From: a virus
Lineage: Duplodnaviria > Caudoviricetes
Strand: one strand, 5' to 3'
Length of the DNA: 32,496 nucleotides
IMG/VR virus record: IMGVR_UViG_3300028865_000008
Location: 1 to 32,496 of that record
Below, piece after piece: positions 548 to 32,270 of this stretch. The position numbers were made by a program, and so were the translations under genes. The notes beneath the pieces are model-generated. The model had not been told where the DNA came from, did not search any database, and was given only the letters and a program-made list of their open reading frames with translations. Each line of letters starts with the position of its first letter. The stretch's first letter is position 1.

Positions 548-1368
548 CGGTGCGGTTGAGCTGGTCAGGGCTGCGAACTCATGAGGATTGCAAACAGCGC
601 AGCCATCTGGCCCGCACGCACAAGCTCGGCACCCTCGACAACAAGCGCAACTTCCTTCCCGGATCGGTGACCGACCGGGTCGTTCGTGACTGGCTGAACA
701 ACGACCCGCTCGATCACATCGGTGAGATGCCGTCCATGGTCGACGCCACCATCGAGTCCGAGAAGGAAGAGCTGGTCTCCAAGGGTGAGGGCGTCGTCCG
801 CTGGCGCAACCCCGGGGACCGCAAGCTGGTGGTGGCCGACTGCACCGAGGCGGTGAAGGCCATCGAGCCGATCCTGCTGAAGTACGTCGTGCCGTTCGAC
901 TTCGAGGCCGACAAGCACTTCGAGGCGGAGATCATGATTCGTCATCCTCGTACAGGAGAGCCTGAGCAGATCATCCTCAACGGCTACATGGACATCCTCG
1001 TGCGTGACGACAAGGGCCGCTGGATCGTCTGGGACGTCAAGCACACCCGGGACGAGTCCTACTGGCGCAAGACTGTCGGCCAGCTCGGGTTCTACGACCT
1101 CGCCGTTGAGCTAATGTTCGGTCAGGCCTCCGCCATGACCGGGCTCCTCCAGCCGCTGTGCAAGGAGAAGGTCAAGGCCTACAAGCCCTCGGTCGATTCC
1201 AGAAACCAGCTCTTGCAGCGAATCCTTGGAATGGCCAACGACGTCCTGCTGGACATCAAGACCCCCGTCGAGGGAACCGGTCCCTGCGGTTTTTGTCCTA
1301 CACGTCATGCGTGTACCAAGTTCGAGCCGATCATCGACGCCAAGGGAAAGAAGCGGATGGCGCTCTGA
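544..1368 (+). CDS. Cas4/RecB-like PD-(D/E)XK exonuclease with Fe-S cysteines
   Basis: LSWSGL...C at the N-terminus, LNGYMDIL...IVWDVKH, QLGFY, C-terminal CGFCPTRHAC. Start moved from 511 to GTG 544 (AAGGAG at 529-534; GTGA overlap with the upstream stop). Confidence 0.85.
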   Translation: MTVRLSWSGLRTHEDCKQRSHLARTHKLGTLDNKRNFLPGSVTDRVVRDWLNNDPLDHIGEMPSMVDATIESEKEELVSKGEGVVRWRNPGDRKLVVADCTEAVKAIEPILLKYVVPFDFEADKHFEAEIMIRHPRTGEPEQIILNGYMDILVRDDKGRWIVWDVKHTRDESYWRKTVGQLGFYDLAVELMFGQASAMTGLLQPLCKEKVKAYKPSVDSRNQLLQRILGMANDVLLDIKTPVEGTGPCGFCPTRHACTKFEPIIDAKGKKRMAL

Positions 1369-1370
1369 GA

Positions 1371-1379
1371 GGCGTATCA
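1371..1379 (+). promoter_or_regulatory. GGCGTATCA motif, putative phage-specific (middle) promoter element
   Basis: Same 9-mer at 1371, 5938, 6452 and 27719, always just upstream of a gene start. Confidence 0.6.
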
Positions 1380-1400
1380 GGGAAGTAGAGAGGAGCCACC

Positions 1401-1649
1401 ATGGCCAGTACCGAAGATCAGATTCGTGAAATACGCGGTTCCATCGCGCAGGTCCAGAGCAAGAAGGTCCGCGCCGCCGTCGAGCTGGAGAACGCCAAGG
1501 CCCGTCTCGCTGATGCCCGCAAGGTGCTGAAGTCCGAGTTCGGGGTGTCCACCACCGAGGAGGCCAAGGCCAAGCTCGCAGAGCTTCGTGCTGAGCTGGA
1601 CGCCACCGTCGTGGAGGTCGAGGAAGCCCTCGCACTGGCGGGGGCATGA
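1401..1649 (+). CDS. Small coiled-coil hypothetical protein
   Basis: AGGAG RBS, heptad-like A/L/E/K pattern, GC3-rich codons. Confidence 0.8.
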   Translation: MASTEDQIREIRGSIAQVQSKKVRAAVELENAKARLADARKVLKSEFGVSTTEEAKAKLAELRAELDATVVEVEEALALAGA

Positions 1650-1771
1650 TCACCGAGTGGATCTCGTGGGGTGCGCTGGCTGTCGGGCTCACACTGGTTC
1701 TCTGGGTGGCCAGCACGATGAAGCCGGGGCCTGCCGAAGAAGAAGATGATGAGGACTTGACTCTTACTTAG
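1646..1771 (+). CDS. 41-aa membrane protein (not in ORF track)
   Basis: ATGA overlap with the previous stop; MITEWISWGALAVGLTLVLWVAST hydrophobic helix plus acidic tail. Confidence 0.6.
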   Translation: MITEWISWGALAVGLTLVLWVASTMKPGPAEEEDDEDLTLT

Positions 1772-1786
1772 GACAGGTCCTATACT
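1757..1786 (+). promoter_or_regulatory. Sigma70/SigA-type promoter
   Basis: TTGACT (1757-1762), 18-nt spacer, TATACT (1781-1786), upstream of the ORF at 1827. Confidence 0.75.
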
Positions 1787-1826
1787 AGAGACGTCAACCC
1801 AGCTTTACGAAACAAGGCGGTCACCA

Positions 1827-2665: not shown

Positions 2666-2678
2666 AAGGAGGCTCGTC

Positions 2679-3116: not shown

Positions 3117-3343
3117 TGGCTGACATCGCTGGTGTCGACCTCCTGTGGAACGCCGTCCGGCTCAGTGCCGCCGACGCCGCCATGGGAGACCATGTGATGA
3201 ACCAGCGCGAGATCGTTGAGGCAGCGGTGAAGGCCACCCTGAACTGCCTGCTCGGTAACGGTCTGGTCACGCTGGTCCCTTCCGAGGAGTGGCCGATGTG
3301 GCTGAAGATGCACCCGGAAGTGGATGAGGTAAGCCATGAGTGA
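3116..3343 (+). CDS. Hypothetical protein
   Basis: TGATG coupling at 3116 (MADIAGVDLLW...); distal part of the 2882..3343 ORF. Confidence 0.7.
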   Translation: MADIAGVDLLWNAVRLSAADAAMGDHVMNQREIVEAAVKATLNCLLGNGLVTLVPSEEWPMWLKMHPEVDEVSHE

Positions 3344-4562
3344 CCAGATGAGCCTGCTCGAACTCAGCGAACTGGAGGACGACCTCGTCCCCGAGATCCT
3401 GCCGTCGACGGCGTCGCTGTCGATCAAGGCCGACGTCACCAAGCTGAAGGCGCTGTTCTCACGGGCCAGCAGCGTCACCCCGTTGAAGGAGATCATTCCC
3501 GGCACGGCCTACGCGCTGTTCGAGGCACTCCCAGCCACCTCCGATGTGGTGTCGCACCTCCGGATCACGGCCAGCGACGGAGAGCAGACGGTCTCGGTCG
3601 TGGAGGATGGGGTCTCGGTCAAGGTGCCGGGCTCGGTCCTGCTGCCTCCCAAGCGGGTGCTGGACATCCTGCGGCTGGCTCCGACCACCACCGTCGACAT
3701 CACCGTGGTGGGCTCCACCGCGTTGGTGCGCTCGGGCCGGGCCCGCTGGACCGTGCAGGTGCCGGTGGGGGAGATCAACACCTTCGGGCTGGACGAGGTT
3801 TCCGGAATCAAGCTGGCTCCGGTGCCGGTGGTGCCCTTCCTGTGCGCCCTGATGGCCGCGCGCAAGGCTGCCTCCACCTCCGCTGCCCGGGTGTCCCTGA
3901 TGCAGGTCAAGGTCAAGGACTCCGCGATCCTCGCCTGTGACGGGGGACGGCTGCACAAGGCCACCGTGGAGGGGCTCGACCCGACCATGGACACCACCAT
4001 CCCGGTGAGCACGGTGGACGAACTGATCAAGGCCCTCGACGGGGCCACCGACCTGCTCATGGGCTTCGACGAGCACCATCTGGTGTTCCGGGCCGGGGCC
4101 GACTCCATCGTGGCCCAGCGGATGCTCCTGCCGTTCCCGGATGTGCAGCAGCTGCTGCTCGGGCCGCAGGTGACCAACACCATGGGCCTGCTCGTGGACC
4201 GGATGGAGCTGTACGAAGCGATCAAGCGGGTGCGGATCAACGCCGACCCCGACATCGCCGTGGTGACCCTGAACATCATCAGGGGGGCCCGTAGCGCCGA
4301 CGACTGGGCTCTGGAGGTCAGGAGCAAGGACGGGGCCGGGAACACCGCACATGAGGTCATGGAATGCCAGTGGAAGGGCAAGCCGAAGGAGGTGTCCTTC
4401 AACCATCACCACCTGACCGACCTGCTGGAGGTCTGCGTGGCCGACACCCTGATCCTGAAGCTGGGTGGCGACACCAAGGCGAACCGCACGCCGCTGCTGG
4501 TCGACGACACGGACGCTGGGGTGATGGGCATTGTCCAGCAGGTGACGAACCACTGGCAGTAG
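3336..4562 (+). CDS. dnaN: DNA polymerase III beta subunit (sliding clamp)-like protein
   Basis: LRITASDGE, ILACDGGRL, FPDVQQLL, VDRMELYEAIKRV, VSFNHHHLTDLL match the three-domain beta-clamp motif order; 408 aa. Confidence 0.85.
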   Translation: MSDQMSLLELSELEDDLVPEILPSTASLSIKADVTKLKALFSRASSVTPLKEIIPGTAYALFEALPATSDVVSHLRITASDGEQTVSVVEDGVSVKVPGSVLLPPKRVLDILRLAPTTTVDITVVGSTALVRSGRARWTVQVPVGEINTFGLDEVSGIKLAPVPVVPFLCALMAARKAASTSAARVSLMQVKVKDSAILACDGGRLHKATVEGLDPTMDTTIPVSTVDELIKALDGATDLLMGFDEHHLVFRAGADSIVAQRMLLPFPDVQQLLLGPQVTNTMGLLVDRMELYEAIKRVRINADPDIAVVTLNIIRGARSADDWALEVRSKDGAGNTAHEVMECQWKGKPKEVSFNHHHLTDLLEVCVADTLILKLGGDTKANRTPLLVDDTDAGVMGIVQQVTNHWQ

Positions 4563-4629: not shown

Positions 4630-4659
4630 GCCCGGCGATAGGTTGATTCCTGAAACCAG

Positions 4660-4688
4660 TTGACATGCCCACCGGAAGTGACTATAGT
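4660..4688 (+). promoter_or_regulatory. Sigma70/SigA-type promoter
   Basis: TTGACA (4660-4665), 17-nt spacer, TATAGT (4683-4688), upstream of AGGAG and ATG 4722. Confidence 0.85.
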
Positions 4689-4721: not shown

Positions 4722-5123
4722 ATGGCTGCCATTCCCACCGGTCTCACGCAGGCCGATCTCGACCGCTACGCCCAGCTCGACGCAGGCATCGCGGCGCTCT
4801 CCGAGGAGCACAAGGTCCTCAACGCCAAGATCAAGAAGGCCCACCTCGACGCAGGTCTTTCCGGAAAGAAGACGCTGGTCTACCCCAGCTCCAAGTACGG
4901 CTCGATCATCGTCAAGCTCAACGAGCAGCGTCGGTTGAACCTCGCCGACCTGACGGAGAACTACCCCGAGGATGACTTCCCGGAGTTCTACTCCTCCGCG
5001 CTGGACACCAAGAAGGTCCCCGCCGACGTGCAGGACGAGTTCCGCACCGTCATCGTGCAGACCCTGTTCATCGACCGGGAGAACGCCGAGCCGGTTGTCT
5101 CACCGAAGCGCGTGCAGGTCTGA
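4722..5123 (+). CDS. Hypothetical protein (early, N-terminal coiled coil)
   Basis: Strong promoter and AGGAG RBS, GC3-rich codons. Confidence 0.8.
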   Translation: MAAIPTGLTQADLDRYAQLDAGIAALSEEHKVLNAKIKKAHLDAGLSGKKTLVYPSSKYGSIIVKLNEQRRLNLADLTENYPEDDFPEFYSSALDTKKVPADVQDEFRTVIVQTLFIDRENAEPVVSPKRVQV

Positions 5124-5556: not shown

Positions 5557-5837
5557 AGTTCCCATGGCAGCACAAGCCCACTCCAGCCGAGCTGGCGGTC
5601 GAGGAAGCCATCTCGCAGGCTGTGCACGAGGTGTTGTCCAAGAGGGACGCCATGCTGGAGGAGATGTGCGTCCAGATGCTCCTCGAAGGCAAGAGGGGCC
5701 TCAGGGTCGTCGAGTACGCCGACAAGATCACCGCTGAGCTGACCGATGATGTGCCCTACGGGGAGATCCACTGGCATCAGGATCTCTACAGTCCGGCGCT
5801 GCTGCACACGCAGATTTTGTTCGAGCCGAAGTCGTAA
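5553..5837 (+). CDS. Hypothetical protein
   Basis: GTGA coupling, typical codon usage. Confidence 0.7.
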   Translation: MKFPWQHKPTPAELAVEEAISQAVHEVLSKRDAMLEEMCVQMLLEGKRGLRVVEYADKITAELTDDVPYGEIHWHQDLYSPALLHTQILFEPKS

Positions 5838-5952
5838 AGCTCTATGTAACCTTTAACTAACTACCCCCGTAGGGGGAGTAAGGGATCCCAGATCGTGGGG
5901 CTCTGATCGAGCCATGGTTGAGTTTTCGTGTCGCTGCGGCGTATCAACGAAC

Positions 5953-6909
5953 GTGCGCCTCTTCCCATACCCCAGCTCCGGAGACAGTACGGCTGTCATC
6001 GGGTGGATGAAGGGCAACGCCAACCGGTACCTGCACACGTTCCGCAGGACCAGCACCCCGCTGCCTCCGGTGGAGCTGCTGGAGGACTGGATCTTCGAGG
6101 TCAGCGTGAAGCTCCACCGACCTTTGGGCGCTACCGAACGGTCCTTCCTCCACACCGCCAATCAGGCCCACGATGCTGCGGTCTACGCGCTGGAGAACTA
6201 CGACCCGGAGCATGAGTGCTTCGAGAAGGCCCGTCGCGGTGGCTGCCGGTCCAAGCGGGTCTCACCCCTGCTGGGGATCGTGCGGGATCTGGCCTACATG
6301 AGCGCGGCGCAGGTGGCTGCGAAGCTAGGGATCTCCCGGCAGCACGCGACCCGGCTGCGGAAGCGGGTGGGCTCCAACCCTCCACAGGACGTTTCCGAAA
6401 AAGAGATAGATGCGCTTATCGGGCACCCGGGTTGGGTTGGGACCGAAGTCAGGCGTATCAACAGGTATGGACACACTGGATTCGCTGGTCATCAGGGCCC
6501 GCCAGCGCCGCAGGCAGATCGACGTGGCGCAGGGCGAGGTCCGGGCGGTGCTGACCCGGGGCAAGGAGCTGAGCGCGGAAGTGGCCTCACTGGGCCAGTC
6601 CGTGGAGGAGCTGGACCGGGTCACGATCCTGCTGAACTCGCTCGGGGAGGAGCGGCAGCTCGCCGCCCAGTCCAGCATCGAGGAGCTGGTCACCCGTGGC
6701 CTGCGGATGATCTTCGACGACACCCTGAGCTTCCACATCACCCAGTCCGTGCGGGGCAAGACCCCCGTGGTCGAGTTCGTGGTGCGGACGACGTTGGGCA
6801 ACGACGTCATCGAGACCCCCGTGATGGACGCCCGGGGCGGTGGCCTTGCCGCCGTGATCGGGTTCCTGCTGCGGCTGGTGGTGGGTCTGATGGGGCGCGA
6901 TCCCCATGA
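5953..6909 (+). CDS. HTH DNA-binding protein; 3' boundary uncertain
   Basis: MSAAQVAAKLGISRQHATRLRK helix-turn-helix. Likely leaderless GTG 5953, 6 nt after GGCGTATCA. Protein-like content ends near 6420 but the frame stays open across the next gene. Confidence 0.55.
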   Translation: MRLFPYPSSGDSTAVIGWMKGNANRYLHTFRRTSTPLPPVELLEDWIFEVSVKLHRPLGATERSFLHTANQAHDAAVYALENYDPEHECFEKARRGGCRSKRVSPLLGIVRDLAYMSAAQVAAKLGISRQHATRLRKRVGSNPPQDVSEKEIDALIGHPGWVGTEVRRINRYGHTGFAGHQGPPAPQADRRGAGRGPGGADPGQGAERGSGLTGPVRGGAGPGHDPAELARGGAAARRPVQHRGAGHPWPADDLRRHPELPHHPVRAGQDPRGRVRGADDVGQRRHRDPRDGRPGRWPCRRDRVPAAAGGGSDGARSP

Positions 6910-7117
6910 CGCCTCCCTGCTTGTGCTCGACGAATCGTTCGCGCACGTCTCCGCCGAGTACCTCGAACCGTTGGGCCAGTTCCTGCGGGAGGTCGTCGAC
7001 AGGACCGGGGTGCAGATCATCCTCGTCACCCACCAGCCCGAGTTCGCTGAGTACGCCGACCGGGTCTACAACTTCTCCACCACCGACGGCAAGACCATCG
7101 TGAAGGACGTTTCCTGA
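6467..7117 (+). CDS. SbcC/Rad50-like ABC ATPase, C-terminal half only
   Basis: N-terminal coiled coil, signature-like ARGGG, Walker B LLVLDESFAHV, H-loop ILVTHQ; no Walker A; ATG 6467 lies 6 nt after GGCGTATCA. Confidence 0.85.
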   Translation: MDTLDSLVIRARQRRRQIDVAQGEVRAVLTRGKELSAEVASLGQSVEELDRVTILLNSLGEERQLAAQSSIEELVTRGLRMIFDDTLSFHITQSVRGKTPVVEFVVRTTLGNDVIETPVMDARGGGLAAVIGFLLRLVVGLMGRDPHDASLLVLDESFAHVSAEYLEPLGQFLREVVDRTGVQIILVTHQPEFAEYADRVYNFSTTDGKTIVKDVS

Positions 7118-7118
7118 A

Positions 7119-7310
7119 ATGAACTACGTCTACGGCTGGGCCTACCCCGACGACCTTGAGGACATGGTCGTGTGCGGCTTCCTCAACGTGGAGGCAGCTC
7201 AGCGTTGGTTGAAGGTGTGGTCTGATCCGGGGGAGGTCGTGATGGTCCGCGTGGTGACCAGCCACGGCGAGTGGGACATGTCCACCGTCGAACTCGTGAA
7301 GGGCCTGTGA
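7119..7310 (+). CDS. Hypothetical protein
   Basis: Abuts the upstream stop, AAGGA RBS. Confidence 0.65.
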   Translation: MNYVYGWAYPDDLEDMVVCGFLNVEAAQRWLKVWSDPGEVVMVRVVTSHGEWDMSTVELVKGL

Positions 7311-7552
7311 TGCCCAAGAGCTTTGACTCCGGGATGCCTCGCAGGGTCTTGCGCTGGGCCCACGAGCACGGCGGTGTGCACAACGACTGCCTCATCTCCG
7401 GGACCCCCTGTGAGAGCTGCGAGACGGTCATCATCGCTTCGTTCGACCACTTCTACGGCCACGCCTCCGACATCGGTGCAGTGCTGGCCATGGTCATCGC
7501 GGACTATCGGCAGGACCTCCTTGCCGACGAACAGGAAGACCCCTGTGCCTGA
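7310..7552 (+). CDS. Hypothetical protein
   Basis: TGATG coupling (MPKSFDSG...), Cys/His cluster. Confidence 0.6.
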   Translation: MPKSFDSGMPRRVLRWAHEHGGVHNDCLISGTPCESCETVIIASFDHFYGHASDIGAVLAMVIADYRQDLLADEQEDPCA

Positions 7553-7703
7553 GAACATCAAGATCCACGCCTCCTTGCTGGTGGCAGCTGCACTGGTGGC
7601 AGCGATGTGCCTGTACGGCTTCTGGTTCTACAGCCACTGCTTCTACGCCCCATTACAGGACTCCCCTGCCGGGTGCCTCGGCTCCTTCGTGAGCGGCAAG
7701 TGA
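7545..7703 (+). CDS. Small membrane protein
   Basis: GTG 7545; LLVAAALVAAMCLYGFWFY hydrophobic segment. Confidence 0.55.
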   Translation: MPENIKIHASLLVAAALVAAMCLYGFWFYSHCFYAPLQDSPAGCLGSFVSGK

Positions 7704-7744
7704 TGAGCGACGCCGACACAGCCCCGCTGGCCCTGAAGTACCGG
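7703..7744 (+). pseudogene. Displaced original 5' end of dnaX (14 codons), in frame with the endonuclease
   Basis: MSDADTAPLALKYR duplicates MEPTEPLALRYR(P) at 8520; TGATG-coupled start; GC3-rich codons. Confidence 0.75.
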
Positions 7745-7749
7745 ATCAA

Positions 7750-7758
7750 TGATACTGT
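7750..7758 (+). promoter_or_regulatory. Extended -10 promoter for a leaderless endonuclease gene
   Basis: TG-A-TACTGT, then 7 nt to ATG 7766; no RBS. Confidence 0.6.
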
Positions 7759-7765
7759 GCTTGGA

Positions 7766-8533
7766 ATGAATGACATTGTGTTTCAAGGCCACATGGTTGA
7801 GCGCGGAAACAAGGACCCTGAGGTGTGGTTCTGGCCATTCGTCGTCAAGGAAGACTCAGGGTGTTGGACGTGGTCCAGAGGAACTCGGTCGGGCGGAATC
7901 GGCTCAGTTCGGGATCGCCGTATCGGAGGAGACAAGCCAGCTCACGCAGTTGCCTACTCATTGACTCATGATCTGGACTACGACGACTTCGGTCCCCTTC
8001 GTCGGCTGTGTGTCACCAAGCTCTGCTGCAACCCGGATCACTACCGTCCGAGGCTGACTTCGATGTTCGATGTGGACGGGGTGCGGAAGTGCTTCCGCTG
8101 TGGAGAATCTAAGGCGCTGGATGAGTTCACACTGAACAAGACATGCACCAGCGGTCGAACTTCTATCTGTAAGAGCTGCACCAACACCTACCACAGGGAG
8201 TGGGCGGACAATCCAGAGAGAAAGATCGAGGCCAGCTACCGGAACCGGAAGACTCACCTTCTGCGCTGGTTCCATCTGACTGAGGAGCAGTTCGATGCCC
8301 TCCTTGCTGCACAGGACGGCGTCTGTGCCTGCTGTGGCACAGACCAGTGGGGCAGCCCTAGTGGGGTGCCCGCTGTGGATCACGACCACTCCTGCTGCCC
8401 GGGAAAGCGGTCCTGCGGGAAGTGTGTACGTGGCTTGCTGTGCATGTCATGCAACACCTTGGCTGGAGCGTTCGAGCATCCGAAGAAGGACATGATTCTG
8501 GACTATCTGGAGCGCACCCATGGAACCTACTGA
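7766..8533 (+). CDS. Endonuclease VII-family homing endonuclease with degenerate N-terminal HNH-like domain
   Basis: GCWTW...AHAVAY...CVTKLCCNPDH; CFRC...CKSC; QDGVCACC...AVDHDHSCCPGKRSCGKCVRGLLCMSCN; lower GC3. Confidence 0.9.
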   Translation: MNDIVFQGHMVERGNKDPEVWFWPFVVKEDSGCWTWSRGTRSGGIGSVRDRRIGGDKPAHAVAYSLTHDLDYDDFGPLRRLCVTKLCCNPDHYRPRLTSMFDVDGVRKCFRCGESKALDEFTLNKTCTSGRTSICKSCTNTYHREWADNPERKIEASYRNRKTHLLRWFHLTEEQFDALLAAQDGVCACCGTDQWGSPSGVPAVDHDHSCCPGKRSCGKCVRGLLCMSCNTLAGAFEHPKKDMILDYLERTHGTY

Positions 8534-17554: not shown

Positions 17555-17777
17555 GCTTCCACAGGCCCATGAGACCGTCCGGGTCACCTTCGACACCTAC
17601 CTCGGAGCCGCTGAAGGACTCCTTCTGGTGCTCGAAGATGCCCGGGTCACCGAGTGTGTCTACAGCTTCACAGGGCTCTCCCCGAACAGGATTCTGAAGA
17701 TGGGCCTCACCCTCCAAGGTGACGTGGCCGATCTTCTAAGGCGTGTGGAGCTGATTTCGGGTTCTCACACGGAGTGA
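17547..17777 (+). CDS. Hypothetical protein
   Basis: GAGGAG RBS before ATG 17547. Confidence 0.55.
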   Translation: MSELPQAHETVRVTFDTYLGAAEGLLLVLEDARVTECVYSFTGLSPNRILKMGLTLQGDVADLLRRVELISGSHTE

Positions 17778-17818
17778 CTTCCAGTGCTTTCAGAATCTCT
17801 CTGCTGAGGACAACCACA

Positions 17819-23800: not shown

Positions 23801-26800
23801 GACCAGATCCACACCATCGTCCACTCCTCCGGGTTCAGCGACGCCGAGAAGGCTGAGTTGTACGACACGCTGGTGGAGCGCCGCGCCAAGATCCTCGACC
23901 GGTTCGGGATCAAGGACGAGACCCCCAACGCCGCCGTGAACGCGGTGGCCACCATTCAGGCCCACAGCAAGGGACAGGGAGCCTTCAAGAAGGGCGAGGT
24001 CGCCCAGCTCAAGCAGACCGGCGAGAAGTTCACCATCACCGGCTCCAACAACGAGATCTCCTACGGCGAGACCTCCCCCGGCGTCTACGGGGCCTACCTC
24101 AACGACGAGCTGTCGGTGCAGGATGCTCCGTTCACGATCCCCGCTGGTGAGACCTACGCCTTCTCCAGCAACGACAAGGTCTACACGGTGGGGGAGAAGG
24201 TCAGCGTCTCCAACCCCGAGACCGAGAAGTTCAAGGACGCTGTCGTGCTCAGCGCTGACCCCTCCAGTGGACTGGTGGAGCTGGACTACGCCGACGGCAC
24301 CCACGGCTTCGCGGACAAGACCCACGTCGTGAAGGCTCCCGAGCCGCTGGGCAGCAACAGGGTCCCCACTGCACTGCCGGATGGTTACAAGCCGGTTCCT
24401 GCTGGAGAGAAGATTCTCGCCAAGTACAAGGGCGCGGACATCTACGCGGTGACCAATGGGGACAGCGTCGACTACCACTACGGGCCGAACAATGGCTCCG
24501 AGTCGGGGACGGTCTTTCATGCTGGGGGCATTGACACGGCCTTCATCAAGGACCACAAGGCGATGTGGGACTCCTTCGACGAGGCTCCTGCTGCCGCGCC
24601 GGAGCCGATCCCCAGCTACCCCGAGGGGCTCAGCTTCACCCCGACGTACCAGCTGGCTGCGGGGGACAAGCTCTACTACAACTCTGACCAGTCGTCCATC
24701 ACCATCGTCGAGGCCAAGGGGCAGGTGGTGCAGGTTTCTGCAAACCAGCCCAACGGCGACATGTACGGCGCACAGAGTGAGACGGCCAAGAGCATCAAGG
24801 AGTGGATCGCGGATCCGAAGAGCAGCTTCACTCCGGTGGAGGACGCCCCCAAGGCTCCCGACCTGCCCGCTCTGCCGTTCGTGTCCACCTACGTCCCCGA
24901 GGCGGGGGACCAGATGTACTACAACGAGGACGAGACCACTGTCTCGGTGCTCAAGGCCAACGGCGACGTGGTCCACGTCAGCGAGTTCAACCCCAACGGT
25001 CTCACGCACCCCAACGGCGACTCCATGAATGCAGTCATGAAGGACTGGTTCGCCGCCCCTGACAGCAGCTACCACCCGGTCCCCACTGGCACCCCGGACG
25101 CTCCGGCAGCCGCAGGCAACCCGGCACCGGCCACCATGCCCGACGGCTACGCCCCGATGCCCGAAGGCGCTCGGATCCTCGCCAAGCACACCAGCAACGG
25201 CAACTTCGTGGTCCGCCACGCCGACAACACCGCCCACTACTACTTCCCCGACGGCAAGGTGCAGGCTGCGCTGGCCTACCCCTCCGTCTTCGAGGAGAAG
25301 TCCGACAACTGGGATCCCTACGACAAGCCCGAGCCCGGCGTCTCCAAGAAGCTGCCGCCCATGACCGAGCTGCCGGATGGCTTCAAGAAGCTCCCGGCCA
25401 ACGCCACCATCGTGGCCAAGACGGTCTCCCCCAGCCCCGCCTACGCCGTGGAGTGGAAGGGCAAGATCTGGTACTACAACCCCTCCGGAGCCGTCATGGA
25501 CGCCGGAGAAGCTGGTGCGACCAAGCGGATGATCGAGAAGACCACCGACGGCTGGGTCATGTTCGAGAAGCCCAACGAGATCCTCGACAGCCCCAAGGCC
25601 GATGTGATCAAGGCCCCCGATAAGCTGCCCGCTGGTTACACCCAGCCCGCACCGGGATCGAAGTACATCGCCATGTACTCCGGAGCCTCCGGAGATGTTC
25701 ATGCAGTGATGGGGGCCGACGGCAAGGTCTCCTACTTCTACGCCGACGGCAGCACCTATGAGCTGCCCGGGGACGGCGACGTGGAGGCCAAGAACCTCGC
25801 GAACACGGCCAAGTACGAGAAGAGCTGGTCGCTGTACGACGGCTACGACCTGCCGATGTCGGCCCCGAAGAAGAGCTTGCTGCCTGACAACTACCTTGCG
25901 CCCCCGGAGGGCTCCAAGGTCATCGCGGTGGACATGACCGGCAAGATCTACGCGGTCAAGCACCCCGACGGAACCATGAGCTGGGCCTACCCGTCCGGCT
26001 ACAACTACGACCAGCCCGCCCACATCACCGAGCAGACGGTGCTGGGGAACACGCACAGCTGGAAGCCGGTCGACCCGAGCAACCCAGCCACGGTCATCGA
26101 CGCCAACATCGATGGGGTCAAGGACCACAAGGGCTCCGTGCTCGCCGTCGGCGACGACGTCACGGTCGTGAAGTTCAACAAGGGTGGACTCTCCAACAAG
26201 GCCAAGGTCGTTTCGATAAACAAGGTGACCGGCAAGGTCAAGATCGTCCGTCTGGACGACAAGGGCAACCAGCTCTGGGGCTCGGACGGCAAGCTGGTCT
26301 ACTCGACGCTGGACTCCAAGAGCCTTGGCAAGGCCGCACCCAAGGTGGTCTGGGACTCCTCCACAGGCCTCCCCAAGGGCGTCTCCATGAGCGAGGGCAA
26401 CCCGGACAGCCCGATGTATGGCAAGCCCGCTCCCGTGGCTCCCAAGGCCCCTGTGAGCGTCGGTGACAGTGCAGGCCCAACCCCACTCGATCTGTCGCCT
26501 GACTTCATGGAGCGGGCGGAGAAGGCCTATGCCGCCTACCGGGCGAAGCACTCTCCCGTTCTCGACCCCAAGGCATTGAAGGACTCCTCCACTGCGTGGA
26601 ACCCGATCAATCAGGCCATGCACGGGGATCAGGCCCAGCTGGACCACATCAAGACCAAGGGCTACTTCGGCGACGAGCCTGCGCTCTACGAGGAGATTCA
26701 GGCCTCCATCGACAAGCTGAAGGCCAGTTACTCCGAGACCATCCACGCCTACGAGGTGCAGAAGGCCGAGTACGAGGCCAAGCACACCGAGTGGCTACAG

Positions 26801-27736
26801 GCCAATGGACACGCCTTCTACACCCCACTGCACCACGACGATCCCAGCGTGCTGGCGATGTCGGCAGATGAGTCCGACAAGTACTGCAAGGCGAAGTGGG
26901 GAGGCATCCTCAAGACGTTGTCCCCGAAGGCCCAGAAGGGACTGGACACCCAGAAGAACGCTTCCAACTGGCAGACCTACCTCCGGAAGATGCCCGCCAA
27001 GCTGGGCTTCAAGAAGGCAGACATCGCTGAGCAGGCCAAGACCGACCCCTACTCAGCCAAGATGGATGTCTGGGAAGGCTGCAAGCAGGCCGCAGATGAG
27101 GCTGGTCCTGTGGGCGAGGCCTTCCGGGCTTCCCGGACGGTCTCCTTCGACCGGTTCGTGCGGAACGATGGCAGCCGGTTCAAGGAAGGTGACGATCTCA
27201 GGTCCATGATCGGATCCATCCAGAAGGATCACGGGGCCATGGAGATCGTTCCCGGCTCGATGGACCACGGAGGTCAGGTCGTCAAGTTTTACAACGTCTA
27301 CGTCGACCTCGTGGTGCCTCCGGAGATGAAGGGTGTCTACACAGGGGCAGGTAGTGGGAACCACAACAACACCGGGGAAAACGGCATGATCATGGAGCCC
27401 GGTCTGGCCATGTATATCTGGGACGTCGTGCCTTACAACGGTTCCTACAAGGTGATGGCGTCTCTGATTCCCCCGGAGGTCTACCCCTACATGAACTACT
27501 TCGAGGGAGACCCGGACAGCCACAACATCGTCGAGCCCAACAGCCCGCAGGCTGCGGCCATGAACGGGATGAAGAAGGCCAACGAGATGAAGGCCGACTA
27601 CGAGGCTGCCATGGCCCTCTACAAGGCTCAGAAGCTGCCGAAGGAGTCCCCTGCGATGGTGGAAGCGGAGAAGCTGAAGTCGGAGTACGAGGCCCTGATG
27701 GCGAAATACGCTTCGGTAGGCGTATCAACGAAGTGA
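17819..27736 (+). CDS. Giant (~3300 aa) polyvalent protein: Nudix hydrolase, PI3/4-kinase/HipA-like kinase, internal repeats, degenerate VIP2-like ADP-ribosyltransferase
   Basis: Continuous GC3-rich ORF (track start 17774; GAGGA RBS favours TTG 17819); Nudix box GAIDQNETGLQGAMREFSEE; kinase motifs YVK, NE, DAWLGNYD, N, RIDPG; ART-like C-terminus. Confidence 0.85.
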   Translation: MTGTTGDPLILELARKVTLAARGSKTRYVRTPEGSRKYGLPIGAPITLDAVKRAAIRHPGMVAPEDSATGNGSSTNAPSSAASKPSIEALTKALTLPESDSPKMVTPKGDQKVSVGGATFNFPSGSKVFRPKKNPDGFAVVRDPNYDLVLITSNGTASDISGESEHVLNARLDDIGPNDSEFSSEELGAPAGDAGKPSAGSPDPNAPDTADTTDYAQFPSYKDVPDYLDDKYIAKVVSGLKATGMDETTLKALEDQLHKQNSDIKDRWTEVNDPDTHAQQKKIKEIEDQMAALQAQLEDLKTPKPNPTPGKKPAPDEGTPPAPDYFGNPKGTDYASTPAPKVDGASARKKNATDKAVSTDIAANGIDGEKTAAKPAEPKKPAEPKKPAEPKKPAEPKKSTNKELATTQAASVLNTLNDGPLDSNNPDHQAMVDSWEKYLDANPDVADALTPKPNAPETNPEHDKQLAGLEKEARKNALGLASTEIGGQKVWARRNRQTDSFEYSVEDVSGNDNVFKTREEALAHVAANMPEPAPEDHVSKRDTTNLPPAEMTPDEISATIADLEAGQAEFGYISPEGEKRLSELKAAKGGKKRAPKEAAPAPVEPVVGESGVNTDPNMKDYWTKGDMDTHGIAPGLPDFPQQAVSRSQILEAKPGDKFLLSHPDDPEHNSLWNVGKDGYAHSISEGGDPMPAPLTEFAETMEFGFQIHPFKGNSKNKNPKPDPVPGDVATETWTASAPEGASVQSSNGLIGVKDREGKWTTAMGPVAPDYFDPADVKDDDSAVVSPTPTPDHPLGATRQISSAEDLKLVQVGDSLAFKDSAMTGTKNSDGTWTLENDGLVWKMDDASILASVETPGTTWWHVPNQELAGDEPKKNWKPGEAIKRLGDLLAQKVGTKLRYKFKKPKPDGTAESVYVVYPDGKLKKDGSAHSFDYWTLKSSVASGQISVLEVPKDDVVLNEPDVPAITKVEDYTVGDKIADYKHLKAMKAGDQITMTIPSSKNGGQPTAVVLTRTDDNKDSAGFMFLVGKKGAGYNALGENNASIFQAIYDGRVHFGDITQLPDASDKELMDSGDWSTVADIPLWDGGPLVSEKDLRTFIDAQIYSRAMQGSYYNTDLLPSNSPFKSASLRKQMSKMAIKEYSKPGMPARHKPAMIRFAAEKLGLQFTDPGSALIPDDLELKDFKTKVTVGRFANKNGLPSSEADKMGPESLEVTVADIKTALAVLDSMDVMTEDDQNKADKILKRVMAMRGSALQDMNVALGIAAYYKVGRSHDEKHKSNFGFAARQHDKRRNKAMLKQMLIEQMEGREPGYYGIPENEVWYDAYDENGNGIGVKYTNFSTLTRPKVNSDTDSGNKSAYADEAKQALAEVSDSKLPASLTAKDLANYPKSFHGKAGTMTRMESKGPVSYHGTIHFNSYNNEPGGKPHFKYDDGAGAGFAFGPNDLVTLDADVTNTALDENVAAVLDGPSVQAYPVTWVQPKPSEHLPSYVVSKSATEINGSEHSIWIINNGGADGYSFSPFLNGYHVEHDNHDNHYPSAGAAQAGAEEYLAAKANVPDAEIPQWEKDLMDWSNTVEVTTKVNDTPGSVDLSKSILPEEQRGLPGDGHVMIHPVDGSEPKPSWGKYGAGGVVVTAMDNGVKKVLVGKRGDRDEWYLPGGAIDQNETGLQGAMREFSEEIHGGEGILSNLKLVSENKAVIGKISGTDKDWTYSTIVTDLGQVQDITAPSFTEDWELKEYQWFSAEELTALESTGALHAALSHGNLAKLAGFETGDMTVPTAAYSKMGPDNLAEPKYDISGWTKIAGDIGGSNPGGVYLDESGKKFYVKKGTPGHMHNEVVASAFYHHFEVNANEVALGKDGNKSDRYLVSPWIENDGKALPKAMVGQGPTGKAFLAKVQEDFAIDAWLGNYDVAGMGPWNLVADKDGKPLRIDPGGAMGYRATGGKKDWWSGDPTDIDDMRNGSTKSPGYSKLPQVFGSMDDEAVGESAKKLLNITPDQIHTIVHSSGFSDAEKAELYDTLVERRAKILDRFGIKDETPNAAVNAVATIQAHSKGQGAFKKGEVAQLKQTGEKFTITGSNNEISYGETSPGVYGAYLNDELSVQDAPFTIPAGETYAFSSNDKVYTVGEKVSVSNPETEKFKDAVVLSADPSSGLVELDYADGTHGFADKTHVVKAPEPLGSNRVPTALPDGYKPVPAGEKILAKYKGADIYAVTNGDSVDYHYGPNNGSESGTVFHAGGIDTAFIKDHKAMWDSFDEAPAAAPEPIPSYPEGLSFTPTYQLAAGDKLYYNSDQSSITIVEAKGQVVQVSANQPNGDMYGAQSETAKSIKEWIADPKSSFTPVEDAPKAPDLPALPFVSTYVPEAGDQMYYNEDETTVSVLKANGDVVHVSEFNPNGLTHPNGDSMNAVMKDWFAAPDSSYHPVPTGTPDAPAAAGNPAPATMPDGYAPMPEGARILAKHTSNGNFVVRHADNTAHYYFPDGKVQAALAYPSVFEEKSDNWDPYDKPEPGVSKKLPPMTELPDGFKKLPANATIVAKTVSPSPAYAVEWKGKIWYYNPSGAVMDAGEAGATKRMIEKTTDGWVMFEKPNEILDSPKADVIKAPDKLPAGYTQPAPGSKYIAMYSGASGDVHAVMGADGKVSYFYADGSTYELPGDGDVEAKNLANTAKYEKSWSLYDGYDLPMSAPKKSLLPDNYLAPPEGSKVIAVDMTGKIYAVKHPDGTMSWAYPSGYNYDQPAHITEQTVLGNTHSWKPVDPSNPATVIDANIDGVKDHKGSVLAVGDDVTVVKFNKGGLSNKAKVVSINKVTGKVKIVRLDDKGNQLWGSDGKLVYSTLDSKSLGKAAPKVVWDSSTGLPKGVSMSEGNPDSPMYGKPAPVAPKAPVSVGDSAGPTPLDLSPDFMERAEKAYAAYRAKHSPVLDPKALKDSSTAWNPINQAMHGDQAQLDHIKTKGYFGDEPALYEEIQASIDKLKASYSETIHAYEVQKAEYEAKHTEWLQANGHAFYTPLHHDDPSVLAMSADESDKYCKAKWGGILKTLSPKAQKGLDTQKNASNWQTYLRKMPAKLGFKKADIAEQAKTDPYSAKMDVWEGCKQAADEAGPVGEAFRASRTVSFDRFVRNDGSRFKEGDDLRSMIGSIQKDHGAMEIVPGSMDHGGQVVKFYNVYVDLVVPPEMKGVYTGAGSGNHNNTGENGMIMEPGLAMYIWDVVPYNGSYKVMASLIPPEVYPYMNYFEGDPDSHNIVEPNSPQAAAMNGMKKANEMKADYEAAMALYKAQKLPKESPAMVEAEKLKSEYEALMAKYASVGVSTK
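18938..19012 (+). repeat. Perfect 18-bp tandem repeat x4 (KPAEPK)
   Basis: AAGCCTGCCGAGCCCAAG four times plus AAG. Confidence 0.95.
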
Positions 27737-28227: not shown

Positions 28228-28533
28228 GTGCCACTGAAGCCTGAGTACGACGGCGACGCCATGAAGGCACCGGGTGCCTTCCTCGCTGTTTCCAAGAACA
28301 AGAAGACCGACGAGGTCCTCGGTCTCTACGTCATCTGCGATGAGGGCAACTTCATCCGGGGCAACGGTCTGTGGATCACCGCCACAGGGAAGGCCCTGTA
28401 CCAGCTGCACGGCTCCCAGCTCATCCCGATGGACCCCGCGTTCATCGACACCTTCGACGAGATGGACAAGACCGGGCGGAAGCCCACCGATGACGAGATC
28501 ACCGACGGCAGCAAGGTCACGGCCACCGCGTAG
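28228..28533 (+). CDS. Hypothetical acidic protein, candidate immunity/partner
   Basis: AAGGA RBS, GTG start; extended -10 TG-G-TACCTT at 28179-28187. Confidence 0.7.
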   Translation: MPLKPEYDGDAMKAPGAFLAVSKNKKTDEVLGLYVICDEGNFIRGNGLWITATGKALYQLHGSQLIPMDPAFIDTFDEMDKTGRKPTDDEITDGSKVTATA

Positions 28534-28548
28534 TTCCTGAAACAAGTC

Positions 28549-28605: not shown

Positions 28606-29697
28606 ATGGATCAGTTCGTAGTCGTACCGGGGCCGAGGGGTGACCGCTTCGTCGAGCTGTCCCACACCGCCTCAGGGCGTGTTTTCCGAAAGCAGATCCT
28701 GCACTTCGGACAGCTGAAGTACCCCGGCGTCAAGGGCGGCTCGGTGCAGGTCGACCAGAAGTTCGCCGACACCCTCATCGCCAACTTCGCCGCAGGCGTG
28801 GCCGACATCGTTCAGGTCCCCAAGGTGAACGGCGACAACGAGCACACCGAGGATCCCGACCGGAACATCGGTGAAGTCATCAGGCTCTACAAGGCCGACG
28901 ATGGCGTCTACGTCGACATCGACGTCCGTACCGACGATGCGGACAAGGTGGGCAAGACCCTGCTGGGGGCTTCCGCCATGCTCCACCTCGACTACATGGA
29001 CACCACGAGCGGCGAACGGGTGGGTCCGACCCTCCTGCACACCGCCATCACCAACCGGCCCTATGTGACCAATCTCAAGGGTTTCGAGGAGGTCATCGCT
29101 GCCTCGCGCGGTGGGGCCGATCTTGATAAGCAGGTGCTGGTGCTTACTCCGGCAGACAACGAGGAGAACTTCATGACTCTGGAAGAGACGCTCGCCGCTC
29201 TCAAGGCCGACCACGGCATCGACGTGACCGCCCTTCAGGAGAAGGCCGCGCTGGCAGATGCGTCTGTCGCACTGAGCAACAAGATTCAGGAAGAGCTGGT
29301 CGGTACCGGCCTCCTGACCCTGAGCAACACCGACGAGACGGTCTCTGCTGAGGTCCTCATCGGTGCCGTCGCAGAAGCCGGGAACAAGATCGTCGCGCTG
29401 ACCGCCAAGGTCGACACGCTGGTCGAGGCTTCCGCCAAGAGCGCCGCCGAAGCCGCAGTCGAGGCACTGGTCCTCTCCGGCCACATCCTCCCGAAGAACC
29501 GTGAGGCCATGGTCGAGCTGAAGCTCTCCAACGCCGAGCTGTTCGACAAGGTCCTCCCGGAGAAGCCGCTCGTCAAGCTCTCCGCAGAGGGTGGCGTCGA
29601 GACCACCGACGACGCGCACGACAAGACCGTGGAGGACGAGATCGCTCGCCTCAGCGCGGTCGCCGACAAGCAGACCGCCGCGTACGTCCGCTCGTAG
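28606..29697 (+). CDS. Mu gpI-type prohead protease/scaffold
   Basis: FRKQILHFG, NEH, GPTLLHTAITNRPYVTNL protease motif, helical scaffold C-terminus; leaderless ATG 7 nt after CCGATCTT. Confidence 0.85.
   Translation: MDQFVVVPGPRGDRFVELSHTASGRVFRKQILHFGQLKYPGVKGGSVQVDQKFADTLIANFAAGVADIVQVPKVNGDNEHTEDPDRNIGEVIRLYKADDGVYVDIDVRTDDADKVGKTLLGASAMLHLDYMDTTSGERVGPTLLHTAITNRPYVTNLKGFEEVIAASRGGADLDKQVLVLTPADNEENFMTLEETLAALKADHGIDVTALQEKAALADASVALSNKIQEELVGTGLLTLSNTDETVSAEVLIGAVAEAGNKIVALTAKVDTLVEASAKSAAEAAVEALVLSGHILPKNREAMVELKLSNAELFDKVLPEKPLVKLSAEGGVETTDDAHDKTVEDEIARLSAVADKQTAAYVRS
29173..29697 (+). CDS. Nested in-frame scaffold protein
   Basis: Internal CCGATCTT (29117), GAGGAG RBS (29161) and in-frame ATG 29173. 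Confidence 0.7.
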   Translation: MTLEETLAALKADHGIDVTALQEKAALADASVALSNKIQEELVGTGLLTLSNTDETVSAEVLIGAVAEAGNKIVALTAKVDTLVEASAKSAAEAAVEALVLSGHILPKNREAMVELKLSNAELFDKVLPEKPLVKLSAEGGVETTDDAHDKTVEDEIARLSAVADKQTAAYVRS

Positions 29698-29739
29698 TAC
29701 TCAGACCCGACCAGAACTCTCAGAAGGAGAACACCAGAA

Positions 29740-30132: not shown

Positions 30133-30138
30133 GCAAGG

Positions 30139-30311
30139 ACCTCTCCCGGTCGGGATTCTGAGGTGATGGAAGGGCCCCGGCCCTTCCTGATCCTGAGTAG
30201 CTCGGAAGGCCAACTCAATCCAGATCAGGCAAGTGACCGGTAACCAATCCGGGCCGCAGATCGGGCACCTAAGCCGGTGTCGCTGACTTCCCAGAAACCA
30301 CTCTGGCGCGA
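30139..30311 (+). ncRNA. Candidate structured RNA / leader of the major capsid gene
   Basis: Consecutive stems visible by eye across a non-coding gap of ~195 nt. Confidence 0.4.
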
Positions 30312-30327
30312 CGAAAGGACAACTTCA

Positions 30328-31386
30328 GTGCCCGAGATCTCTCTGCTCCAGCCCACGGTGCTCCGTGGTGTCGTCGAGCGCTTCACCGCTCCTGAGTCTC
30401 TGGAGATGCTCAGCCGCGTCCCGCAGACCCCCCACCCGTTCCCGACGGTGCAGTGGGAAGTCATCCGTGGCTCCCGCGCCATCGCTCGCCCGAACGTCCC
30501 GAACAGCGAAGCACACATCGTGCCGCGCCTCGGTCGCTCCAGCCAGAGCGCGGCCTTCGTCTACCTTCGCGAGAAGAAGGTCTTCGAGCCCACCACGCTC
30601 CACTGGCTGCGCCAGTCGGCCAACTCGGTCTCCGAGCTGGCGAACACCCGCGCTGAGGAGTCGGTGCTGCGTGAGGTCAAGGACCTCAACCAGCGCTTCG
30701 ACAACTTCGCCGAGTACCTGATCTGGCAGGCCTGCACGGGCACCCTGACCCTCGACTACCCGGACGTTCAGGCGACCGTGGACTACAAGTTCCTCCCGTC
30801 GCACAAGGCGTCGGTTGCGGGCTCGTGGGCCACTGCCACCCCGGGAGCAATCGTCGAGGACATCCGCGCCCTCAAGCGGCTGATCACCCGCGACGGTCGG
30901 GTCCCGGCTGTCGATGCGTACGCCACGGAGAAGACCATGACGTACATCTTCAACGCCTTCGCCAACACGGGCGCGGCTTCCCCCGGCACTGCCGGTGGCA
31001 TCCTGCTCTCCGACCGGATGAAGGACCAGTACTACCAGAACGGCATCCTCCCGGGCTTCATGGGCCTGAACTGGAAGCCGCAGGAGGCCGTGTACGACGG
31101 CGCAGGCGCTGCCTACACCGCATCCCCGACCATCCCCGCCGCCGAGCAGCGCTTCTTCGCTGACGACGCCCTGCTGATCGGCAACTTCACCGAGAACCGC
31201 CCCATCGAACTCTTCATCGGCCCCACCGCCGACGACGAGGCCCCGGACGGCTACACCGGCAAGTTCGCCAAGACGTGGAAGGACAAGGACCCGTCGGCCC
31301 GTCAGTACCTGCTGGAGTGGAACCTCCTGCCGGTCATCACGAGGCCGGAACAGTTCGTTTATGTCAGCGATGTTACGCCGGGCTGA
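30328..31386 (+). CDS. Major capsid protein (lambda gpE family)
   Basis: AAAGGA RBS with GTG 30328; EYLIWQACTGTL...VDY, W.....DI, KTWKDKDPS...LPVITRPE; 352 aa. Confidence 0.88.
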   Translation: MPEISLLQPTVLRGVVERFTAPESLEMLSRVPQTPHPFPTVQWEVIRGSRAIARPNVPNSEAHIVPRLGRSSQSAAFVYLREKKVFEPTTLHWLRQSANSVSELANTRAEESVLREVKDLNQRFDNFAEYLIWQACTGTLTLDYPDVQATVDYKFLPSHKASVAGSWATATPGAIVEDIRALKRLITRDGRVPAVDAYATEKTMTYIFNAFANTGAASPGTAGGILLSDRMKDQYYQNGILPGFMGLNWKPQEAVYDGAGAAYTASPTIPAAEQRFFADDALLIGNFTENRPIELFIGPTADDEAPDGYTGKFAKTWKDKDPSARQYLLEWNLLPVITRPEQFVYVSDVTPG

Positions 31387-31408
31387 TCTGGTGATCACAG
31401 CTAAAGTG

Positions 31409-31417
31409 TGCTAAACT
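31409..31417 (+). promoter_or_regulatory. Extended -10 promoter for a leaderless endonuclease gene
   Basis: TG-C-TAAACT, then 7 nt to ATG 31425; no RBS; same layout as at 7750. Confidence 0.65.
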
Positions 31418-31424
31418 CTCCTGC

Positions 31425-32270
31425 ATGGAGAGACGTGCATGGTTGGACTCAGAGGTCGAACTTCTTCGGAAGTCGGCCTCTGAGTCATTTCTGAAGGATC
31501 TGGCGACCGAACTGGATCGCCCGGTGAAGATGGTCCGCTGGAAGCTCAATCAGCTGGGTCTGAAGGCCAAGGACGCCCGGACAGGCAACACTGGTCGTCC
31601 CGTGTCGATCTGGACTGCTGAGCGGCTGGAGCACCTGAGAAGGCTGGCCCCCACGATGTCAGCAGCCCACATCGCCGTGGGGCTGGGAGTCACCGAGAAG
31701 CAGGTGAGGACCGCCCTGTTCGAGCACGGGATCGAGGGTCGAGGTGTTTCGAGAAAGCAGACTCCTGAAGAGGTGAAGGCTCGGACAGCTCCCCTGAAGG
31801 GCCGGATCAAGGTGGACCGGAAGGCATCTCGTACCTGCTCCCGCTGCGGGGAAGAGAAGCCGGTCTTCCAGTACCCCAGTGAGTCCACGGTGGAGAGCCT
31901 GCTGTGTGAGGAGTGCCGGAAGAAGGCTCGGGCTGAACGTCATGCTGCGCTGACTCCTGAAGAACGTCGGCGGATGAACCTTCAGCAGAGAACCAATCGC
32001 CATGGCCTGTCGAGGGAGACCTACACAGCCCTGTTGGAAGCACAGAGTTACTCCTGCGCCGTGTGCCTGACTCCGTTTTCCGAAACCAGATCACCTGCGA
32101 TTGACCACGACCACAAGCACTGCTCAGGAGTATCGGGGTGCGCCCAGTGCATCAGGGGGCTGGTCTGCACAAGATGCAACACAGCCGTGGGGTGGGCGGA
32201 GACCTTCCACGCCTCTCCCGAGTACCTTGAGGCCATCGCTGCCTACCTGTCCAAGGCCGATCTTCTGTAG
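31425..32270 (+). CDS. Endonuclease VII-family homing endonuclease with two N-terminal HTH repeats
   Basis: WLDSEVELLRK...LATELDR and WTAERLEHLRR...IAVGLGV; CSRC...CEEC; QSYSCAVC...AIDHDHKHC...CIRGLVCTRCN. Confidence 0.9.
   Translation: MERRAWLDSEVELLRKSASESFLKDLATELDRPVKMVRWKLNQLGLKAKDARTGNTGRPVSIWTAERLEHLRRLAPTMSAAHIAVGLGVTEKQVRTALFEHGIEGRGVSRKQTPEEVKARTAPLKGRIKVDRKASRTCSRCGEEKPVFQYPSESTVESLLCEECRKKARAERHAALTPEERRRMNLQQRTNRHGLSRETYTALLEAQSYSCAVCLTPFSETRSPAIDHDHKHCSGVSGCAQCIRGLVCTRCNTAVGWAETFHASPEYLEAIAAYLSKADLL

Follow-up and report, generated by a model that had tools for sequence, protein, structure and literature searches.

A dispersed palindrome in the genomes of a phage clade that includes Microbacterium phage Magritte, and a small helix-turn-helix protein as its candidate binder

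The stretch of DNA analysed here, called the window throughout, is the whole of IMG/VR record IMGVR_UViG_3300028865_000008 (32,496 bases; G000 in our genome set). It is a fragment of a phage with 63% guanine-cytosine (GC) content and carries replication-accessory genes, terminase and portal genes, a gene for a 3320-amino acid protein, and a capsid gene. Another part of the same phage, G003, overlaps the window by 1,970 bases with 5 mismatches. Microbacterium phage Magritte was the only annotated relative returned for the window (77% identity in the capsid), so the host is probably an actinobacterium. Spread through this DNA is a degenerate palindrome with a 2-bp centre, GTTTCNNGAAAC, whose distribution, likely binding protein, and possible function we consider here.

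The palindrome is real and is enriched against codon bias. All 27 positions listed in an initial annotation of the window hold the near-palindromes described there: 14 differ from GTTTCNNGAAAC by one mismatch, 11 by two, and two (13551 and 17786) by more, while no perfect copy of the 12-mer occurs in the window. That annotation claimed at least seven exact TTTC-NN-GAAA cores, and we counted seven. With up to one mismatch, the core was found 24 times in the window compared with 3.65 ± 2.0 times in dinucleotide shuffles, none of which (0 of 100) reached 24. Synonymous-codon shuffles, a check named beforehand, also left a large excess: 14 copies of the 12-mer with at most one mismatch were observed against 1.49 expected (largest value 4 in 1000 shuffles), and the seven exact cores compare with 0.11. 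The two kinds of shuffle rule out chance or a codon artefact as the origin of the motif. A matrix trained on 55 sites from DNA of the relative G001 that is non-homologous to the window, used at a threshold of 11 bits, found 25 sites in the window, of which 22 lie wholly in coding DNA (0.61 ± 0.74 in synonymous shuffles, largest value 3 in 500). The sites were also said to force rare codons; across 21 intragenic sites, 48 of 87 codons are rare, compared with a background of 10.8%.

Individual sites were scored with a second matrix, trained partly on the window, by which 24 of the 27 listed sites reach 11 bits. The three below are a site just downstream of a promoter (1802-1813, 9.9 bits), one upstream of the capsid gene (30287-30298, 7.7 bits), and one too weak to count (17786-17797, 6.1 bits). 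Three sites beyond the earlier list were newly found, beginning at 22886, 28288, and 32334. Sites kept in G001 lie in the sliding-clamp gene (3336-4562; site 3798-3809, 17 bits), the gene at 4722-5123 (4857-4868, 18 bits), a glycosyltransferase gene (9656-10345; 9733-9744, 19 bits), the gene at 10877-11617 (11476-11487, 20 bits), the terminase gene (13753-13764, 17 bits), the portal gene (15162-15173, 15 bits), and the scaffold/protease gene (28606-29697; 28681-28692, 14.5 bits). The site in the PD-(D/E)XK exonuclease gene (511-1368; 1195-1206, 18 bits) uses the same codon in G001, and that in the head-morphogenesis gene (16745-17554; 17105-17116, 18 bits) the same codon in G001 and Magritte. 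A site at 6391-6402, within an open reading frame (ORF) that starts at 5914, is in the same place in G001, and the 20-bit site at 7109-7120, which covers both the stop codon that ends the SbcC C-terminal gene and the start that follows it, has its G001 counterpart at 6994. Absent from G001 are the sites early in the clamp-loader gene (8520-9659; 8564-8575, 15 bits, same codon in G006), at 13551-13562 in the terminase gene (17 bits, same codon in G012, G014, and G019), and at 16220-16231 in the portal gene (15 bits). A borderline site (1421-1432, 11.1 bits) lies near the start of the gene at 1401-1649.

The long gene for the 3320-amino acid protein contains sites at 19340-19351 (20 bits, four rare codons), 21083-21094 (20 bits), 21869-21880 (19 bits), 22886-22897 (12 bits), 24734-24745 (13.5 bits), and 26210-26221 (17.5 bits). 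The gene at 28228-28533 has one site inside (28288-28299, 13.5 bits) and one at its stop codon (28532-28543, 12.6 bits), and an endonuclease VII gene (31425-32270) has two, at 31746-31757 and 32075-32086 (16 bits each); G001 has no endonuclease VII gene after its capsid gene. The site at 32334-32345 (15.8 bits) in the last, cut-off ORF contains TTGACA but lies within the coding frame, and it was rejected as a promoter site. Two of these neighbourhoods have features of their own. The gene for the 3320-amino acid protein (17774-27736) stands between the head-morphogenesis and protease genes; Nudix is the only domain recognised in it, and its counterparts in G001 (2096 amino acids) and G006 (3476 amino acids) have low identity to it. 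Ahead of the clamp-loader gene, another endonuclease VII gene (7703-8533) opens with 14 residues identical to the start of the G001 clamp-loader; it looks like an insertion into the clamp-loader start, after which the clamp-loader restarts at 8520 with a similar N-terminus.

The 2-bp centre bears on one proposed function, that a ParB-family protein recognises the palindromes as centromeres or occlusion sites, like parS or the Noc-binding site (NBS). The half-sites TTTC and GAAA in a 16-bp palindrome agree with consensus parS and NBS (PMC7383237), and one of 37 members of the helix-turn-helix (HTH) family described below weakly matches a ParB-like PHROG (E=0.002). However, the consensus parS and NBS halves, TGTTTCAC-GTGAAACA, stand 4 bp apart (PMC7383237), and the halves here are 2 bp closer, as the initial annotation had said. 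At up to one mismatch, the window has 14 matches with a 2-bp spacer and none with 4 bp, or with any spacer of 3-6 bp. Of the other spacers only 1 bp was raised (5 exact cores compared with 1.0), an excess that we attribute to sites with T/A at the inner position being matched out of register. A search for ParB, also proposed beforehand, placed ParB_N (PF02195) over the profile cut-off in 0 of 5 complete relatives, with one weak match in G019; tyrosine integrase and resolvase were likewise above cut-off in 0 of 5. The sites are dispersed and promoter-linked rather than clustered. Together, these results make a partition role extremely improbable.

Beyond the window, the motif is genome-wide across one clade that includes Magritte. 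TTTC-N2-GAAA was the top gapped palindrome in the window and in G001-G004, and with its flanks the consensus covers about 16 bp, T(C/T)GTTT(C/T)-NN-(G/A)AAAC(G/A)A. The window and G003 together hold 63 sites in 90,886 bases, with a median gap of 1.3 kb. Matrices refitted to each genome found 73 sites in G001 (104 kb), 32 in G006, 54 in Magritte, 47 in G031, and 49 in G014, with nulls of 0-12; the high-GC members carried between one site per 4 kb and one per 1.4 kb. Counts in the low-GC members were 25 in G008 (nulls 7-9), 22 in G019 (8-15), and 13 in G012 (5-11). Motif enrichment was absent from eight more distant genomes; by exact-core counts only, G021 had 1 compared with 3 in the control and G022 had 3 compared with 3. 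The refits also showed that flanks vary by phage lineage around a TTC-NN-GAA core, as expected if the partner protein is phage-encoded. Conservation in relatives, another check proposed in advance, thus held for the motif across whole genomes of the clade but not for single positions beyond G001: G001 retains the intragenic position of 9 of the 15 window sites that could be aligned and of 13 of 18 G003 sites, whereas the figure for more distant clade members is 0-1 of 8-13 and the outgroup retains none. Literature searches gave no paper for four spellings of the motif and listed none on the clade apart from one that names Magritte, with sparse coverage of subscription journals. Other palindromes were over-represented in single genomes, namely GTTAC-N4-GTAAC (8 copies, G014), ATTGCAAT (12, G006), GTCTA-N5-TAGAC (6, G011), and TGACA-N2-TGTCA (6, G020).

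A comparison of gene content pointed to a candidate binder of 70-85 amino acids (71-83 in that comparison), whose gene (G001 83042-83293; Magritte gene 154) immediately precedes the SbcC N-terminal gene at a locus outside the window. For the Magritte protein, the alignment suggests that translation begins ahead of the annotated start. In 10 of 11 loci the two genes are separated by at most about 700 bases. The protein has 43 database relatives and a conserved helix ending in TGLSRDRL; in the recognition-helix region of 37 proteins R52 is invariant and L50, S51, and I58 are at least 90% conserved. AlphaFold2 predicted a long helix and an HTH (mean predicted local distance difference test score, pLDDT, 83). 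A homodimer joined by an antiparallel coiled coil was also predicted, with a score of 0.59 (best control 0.01), pLDDT of at least 85, and 100% contact agreement between runs. The prediction used an alignment of our own. Of solved one-chain pairs, 20 of 30 passed the mark for a homodimer, as did 1 of 23 single chains, and the pass of the HTH protein may reflect likeness to solved dimers. Twelve of 37 members matched PHROG 686, an HTH DNA-binding family, and the Atlas neighbours of the protein are small HTH clusters. Searches of solved structures gave no match at E<=0.001, the best viral rows being small HTH proteins, several of them from actinophages.

The distribution of the HTH gene follows that of the motif. 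It was found in 8 of 28 records searched, all within the motif-bearing clade. Among the genomes examined, all 8 with the HTH gene showed motif enrichment (log10 P <= -2), and none of the 8 without it did. At 8 of 11 distinct loci, a site precedes the gene by no more than about 300 bases, by a loose pattern with no formal null. Further scans for the locus gained one complete genome (G031) and three short contigs, whereas prokaryote genomes yielded a single partial match (E=6e-6). A scan for the site followed by TTGAC returned 62 loci, of which only the G001 locus came from the clade and none had the HTH gene. A protein 84% identical to that of G001, P0011, may be the one belonging to the window phage. 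Taken together, we consider it likely that the HTH protein binds the palindrome.

The neighbouring SbcC/Rad50-like ATPase appears to be split, with N- and C-terminal genes far apart and an Mre11-like gene at a third place (coordinates for this set are 6467-7117 in the window and 83320-84405 and 97632-98693 in G001). A histone-deacetylase-family protein (PF00850, E=4e-51) is also phage-encoded in this clade, at L088:12185-13414 (G001 92185-93414), with relatives in G006 and Magritte.

Other proteins could in principle bind the sites. A clade-only protein of 78-80 amino acids (window 7310-7552) has the same clade pattern as the HTH protein, sites flank the gene for a DUF932 protein in G001, G003, and G006, and the ORF starting at 5914 has a weak HTH match and contains a site; a host regulator is a further candidate. 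However, the 78-80 amino acid protein had no usable DNA-binding look-alike, DUF932 is present in motif-negative relatives, and flank variants follow phage lineage. The ORF from 5914 was matched only in the window, G001, and G004; restricted to these three contigs and dissimilar to the candidate HTH family, it was rejected as the binder. A binder other than the small HTH protein is very unlikely. In its region (window 5836-6468), the ORF has a C-terminal HTH and overlaps into the SbcC C-terminal gene in another frame, and it is preceded by AT-rich DNA that is conserved and contains a short inverted repeat; the two are possibly a replication initiator and its origin.

Many sites are placed precisely relative to promoters, a pattern that the window largely hides because it consists mostly of structural genes. 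The initial annotation placed sites next to both sigmaA-type promoters of the window. This holds for TTGACA-17-TATAGT (4660-4688, plus strand, ahead of the gene at 4722-5123), where an 18-bit site at 4645-4656 is centred at about -44 and TTGACA begins 15 bases after the site start. At TTGACT-18-TATACT (1757-1786, plus strand), the site at 1802 is the weak one described above, and its G001 counterpart has 15.3 bits and is centred near +14; a strict scan counted one of the two. In G001, that scan found a site within -60 to +40 of 14 of 20 intergenic sigmaA-type promoters (1.4 expected), and at 12 of the 20 the site is centred at -43 to -45, abutting the -35 box. G003 had a site at 4 of 5 such promoters. 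A looser test, which required a -35-type hexamer to lie 14-17 bases downstream of where the site begins (random expectation 0.2-0.7; some matches are not promoters), gave 14 of 73 sites in G001, 6 of 40 in G003, 7 of 54 in Magritte, 4 of 47 in G031, 3 of 22 in G019, and 2 of 32 in G006. In Magritte, G031, and G019, where 0.3-0.5 would be expected at random, the geometry thus recurs with different promoter sequences.

Promoter quality and the position of the remaining sites bear on the direction of control; among RNA runs, no carrier was listed. Site-bearing promoters in G001 and the window have consensus TTGACA and score 9-11 of 12, while several in Magritte and G031 have poor boxes (TTGTGC; TTTAAT or TTAAAT). 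At the DUF932 promoter, two sites (G001, G003, G014) or one (G006, Magritte) lie over the -35/spacer or start region, and at the promoter of the HTH gene itself sites cover the spacer or start region, positions that suit repression. Site-bearing promoters in Magritte (88381-97800) and G031 (92000-98800) have in common a second spacer element, GTTAG(C/T)GCG, and atypical -10 boxes. Separately, GGCGTA is enriched within 60 bases upstream of clade genes (19 compared with 4.8 expected in G019, 13 compared with 4.4 in G014) but not in the outgroup; an example lies at about 6450-6456 in the window, and it is possibly an element recognised by a phage sigma factor.

The same HTH dimer could instead be a class II activator like Mor of phage Mu, which would contact sigma region 4 and turn early or middle promoters on, with intragenic sites acting as a sink or having a second use. 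The fixed centre at -43 to -45, seen at 12 of 20 G001 promoters, matches that of the 16-bp dyad bound by the Mor dimer at -43.5 (PMC4390567), and the poor boxes at several Magritte and G031 promoters would fit. However, Mor acts at Pm, where its element replaces the -35 (PMC4390567), whereas TTGACA is intact in G001, G003, and the window and weaker in Magritte and G031. Activation would also leave dozens of intragenic sites unexplained (44 of 73 in G001), as well as the sites over spacer or start regions. No Mor family was among the Pfam or PHROG matches of the HTH protein, and no Mor or C structure was among the Foldseek matches listed, of which none reached E<=0.001. We consider activation fairly unlikely.

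Most sites lie away from promoters, and their spacing has been read as an evenly spread array. In the window, spacing is modestly more even than random (coefficient of variation 0.63, P=0.011) but not periodic, and the broad histogram of gaps led us to reject strict periodicity. Against a null of synonymous opportunities, sites were more evenly spaced in the window (P=0.027), G003 (0.016), G014 (0.0005), and G008 (0.004), but not significantly so in G001 (P=0.06), G006 (0.07), or Magritte (0.26), and gaps reach 8-12 kb. Sites run along the whole length of G001, G006, G014, and Magritte without clustering near an origin. About 60% are intragenic (44 of 73 in G001). In G001, 25 of 75 sites were called intergenic compared with 8% of the sequence, although the gene caller missed genes and at least 1 of the 25 is coding.

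Such dispersal could mean that the array is primarily structural, with the dimer coating the chromosome every 1-3 kb and organising it or marking it as self against SbcCD-like or host nucleases, and with promoter control secondary. Consistent with this, most sites are intragenic at the cost of rare codons, they persist as positions turn over, they occur in an endonuclease gene that G001 lacks, spacing is even in four of the sequences above, and at 10 of 11 loci the HTH gene is close to that for the SbcC N-terminal part. However, evenness is not significant in G001, G006, and Magritte, density varies among the high-GC members (between one site per 4 kb and one per 1.4 kb), HTH-negative relatives retain the SbcC N-terminal gene, and the adjacency of the two genes may be inherited synteny. 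The precise promoter geometry would need a transcriptional account in any case, and a structural role as the primary one is unlikely. Since about a third of whole-genome sites are intergenic and many sites are fixed relative to promoters, we place transcriptional control first; the earlier suggestion of coating or shielding is kept as a candidate role for the intragenic sites only.

We lean modestly towards repression, in which the HTH dimer would act through the palindromes as a genome-wide repressor. As infection proceeds, levels of the protein would rise; it would restrain its own promoter and switch off the strong early promoters, where it would crowd the -35/upstream (UP) region. Intragenic sites would serve as stoperator-like roadblocks or as a sink that damps read-through. 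Repression is favoured because promoters in G001 and the window already have consensus boxes, the spacer or start region lies beneath other sites, and the promoter of the HTH gene has sites of its own. The promoter geometry and the predicted homodimer also support the proposal, made in the initial annotation, of an array of sites for a dimeric protein that works in a stoperator-like manner.

Several observations weigh against this reading. The HTH gene and the motif mark one clade (support 1.0), so their co-occurrence counts as a single event. The same restriction applies to two further genes, present in 7 of 8 genomes inside the clade and 0 of 7 outside it: those for the 78-80 amino acid protein, which contains cysteine, and for an exonuclease, neither of which looks like a DNA-binding regulator. 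The HTH gene of the window phage itself was not seen, as G003 ends before the region and the scans returned no covering contig, and G008, G012, and L187 have no site upstream of theirs. Refitted counts in G012 and G019 are close to their nulls, and enrichment of the fixed pattern is weak in G008, G012, G019, and G031 (log10 P -2 to -4). The strict scan found sites at 0 of 3 promoters in G006, 0 of 2 in Magritte, and 0 of 1 in G014, and the looser test found the -35-abutting geometry at 0 of 49 sites in G014 and 0 of 25 in G008; the hexamers TTGTGC and TTGCGC were added to that test after the Magritte and G031 data had been seen. A 16-bp site centred at -43.5 is the position of the activator Mor as well. 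Finally, an HTH dimer of this small size may lack the strength to halt an elongating polymerase.

Palindromic operators repeated across an actinophage genome are found in phiC31, whose conserved inverted repeats are bound by the c repressor, but those repeats are intergenic, the phage is temperate and integrates, and its repressor is much larger. By analogy, the repeats described here most resemble the unexplained dyad arrays of clusters O and EG, with a different sequence. Cluster O mycobacteriophages carry 17-bp dyads, 34 of them in Corndog, in a genome with no integrase or parAB reported (PMC4351075). As here, the palindromes are dispersed both between and within genes of a phage without integrase. 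However, the cluster O sequence, TGTTCGG-NNN-CCGAACA, has a 3-bp centre and near-invariant arms and is described as mostly not linked to promoters (PMC4351075), whereas sites in our clade are degenerate, about 60% intragenic, and fixed relative to -35 boxes, with a named candidate binder. In Microbacterium, the genus of Magritte's host, cluster EG phages have an 18-bp inverted repeat that also has a 2-bp centre, with no repressor or integrase identified in that account; it differs in sequence, in copy number (8-10), and in being intergenic, 14-22 bp before start codons (PMC7302621).

In function, the array would work like cluster A operators and stoperators, or like the SPbeta repeated element SPBRE and its repressor MrpR. 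The stoperators bound by the L5 repressor are asymmetric sites of 13-14 bp, oriented with transcription, present in 20-30 copies per genome, and serve lysogeny (PMC6550527). A few promoter operators alongside many non-promoter sites, and drift of motif and protein across the clade, are common to both (PMC6550527), and many genome-wide sites with only some at promoters is what we observed. The systems differ in symmetry and lifestyle: our top motif is palindromic (the matrices were symmetrised), with 32-73 sites per high-GC genome, and no integrase or partition system of a temperate phage was detected in the five complete genomes. SPBRE was likewise a repeated phage element before it was shown to bind one master repressor, but MrpR has a recombinase fold and belongs to a temperate phage, and the 9 peaks from which its motif was derived are at promoter regions (PMC10516654). 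Gp36 of D29 is an example of a small repressor in a lytic actinophage (PMC12266134). The statement in the initial annotation that this is not a described system therefore applies to the motif, which was absent from the literature found, but not to the kind of system, which cluster O repeats, stoperators, and SPBRE already represent.

Dispersed palindromes of non-integrating actinophages (clusters O and EG) have been published without a binder or a function. Here, a specific site and a specific candidate of 70-85 amino acids coincide. Magritte, a cultured phage that infects M. foliorum, has both, so the question is directly testable. The high share of intragenic sites with rare codons raises the further question of why roadblocks would be placed in structural genes of phages in which no lysogeny module was detected. 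One quite unlikely answer is that a non-integrating phage tags its own chromosome, with the SbcC-adjacent dimer both shutting early promoters and coating the DNA against SbcCD-like or host nucleases; if so, rare codons would be paid for every 1-3 kb so that the phage's own and host nucleases spare phage DNA. The paper describing Magritte reports turbid plaques, no integrase, and no immunity repressor, and does not mention the motif. The system described here could bear on how those turbid plaques arise despite the lack of an annotated repressor, and annotation of gene 154 as a regulator may become possible.

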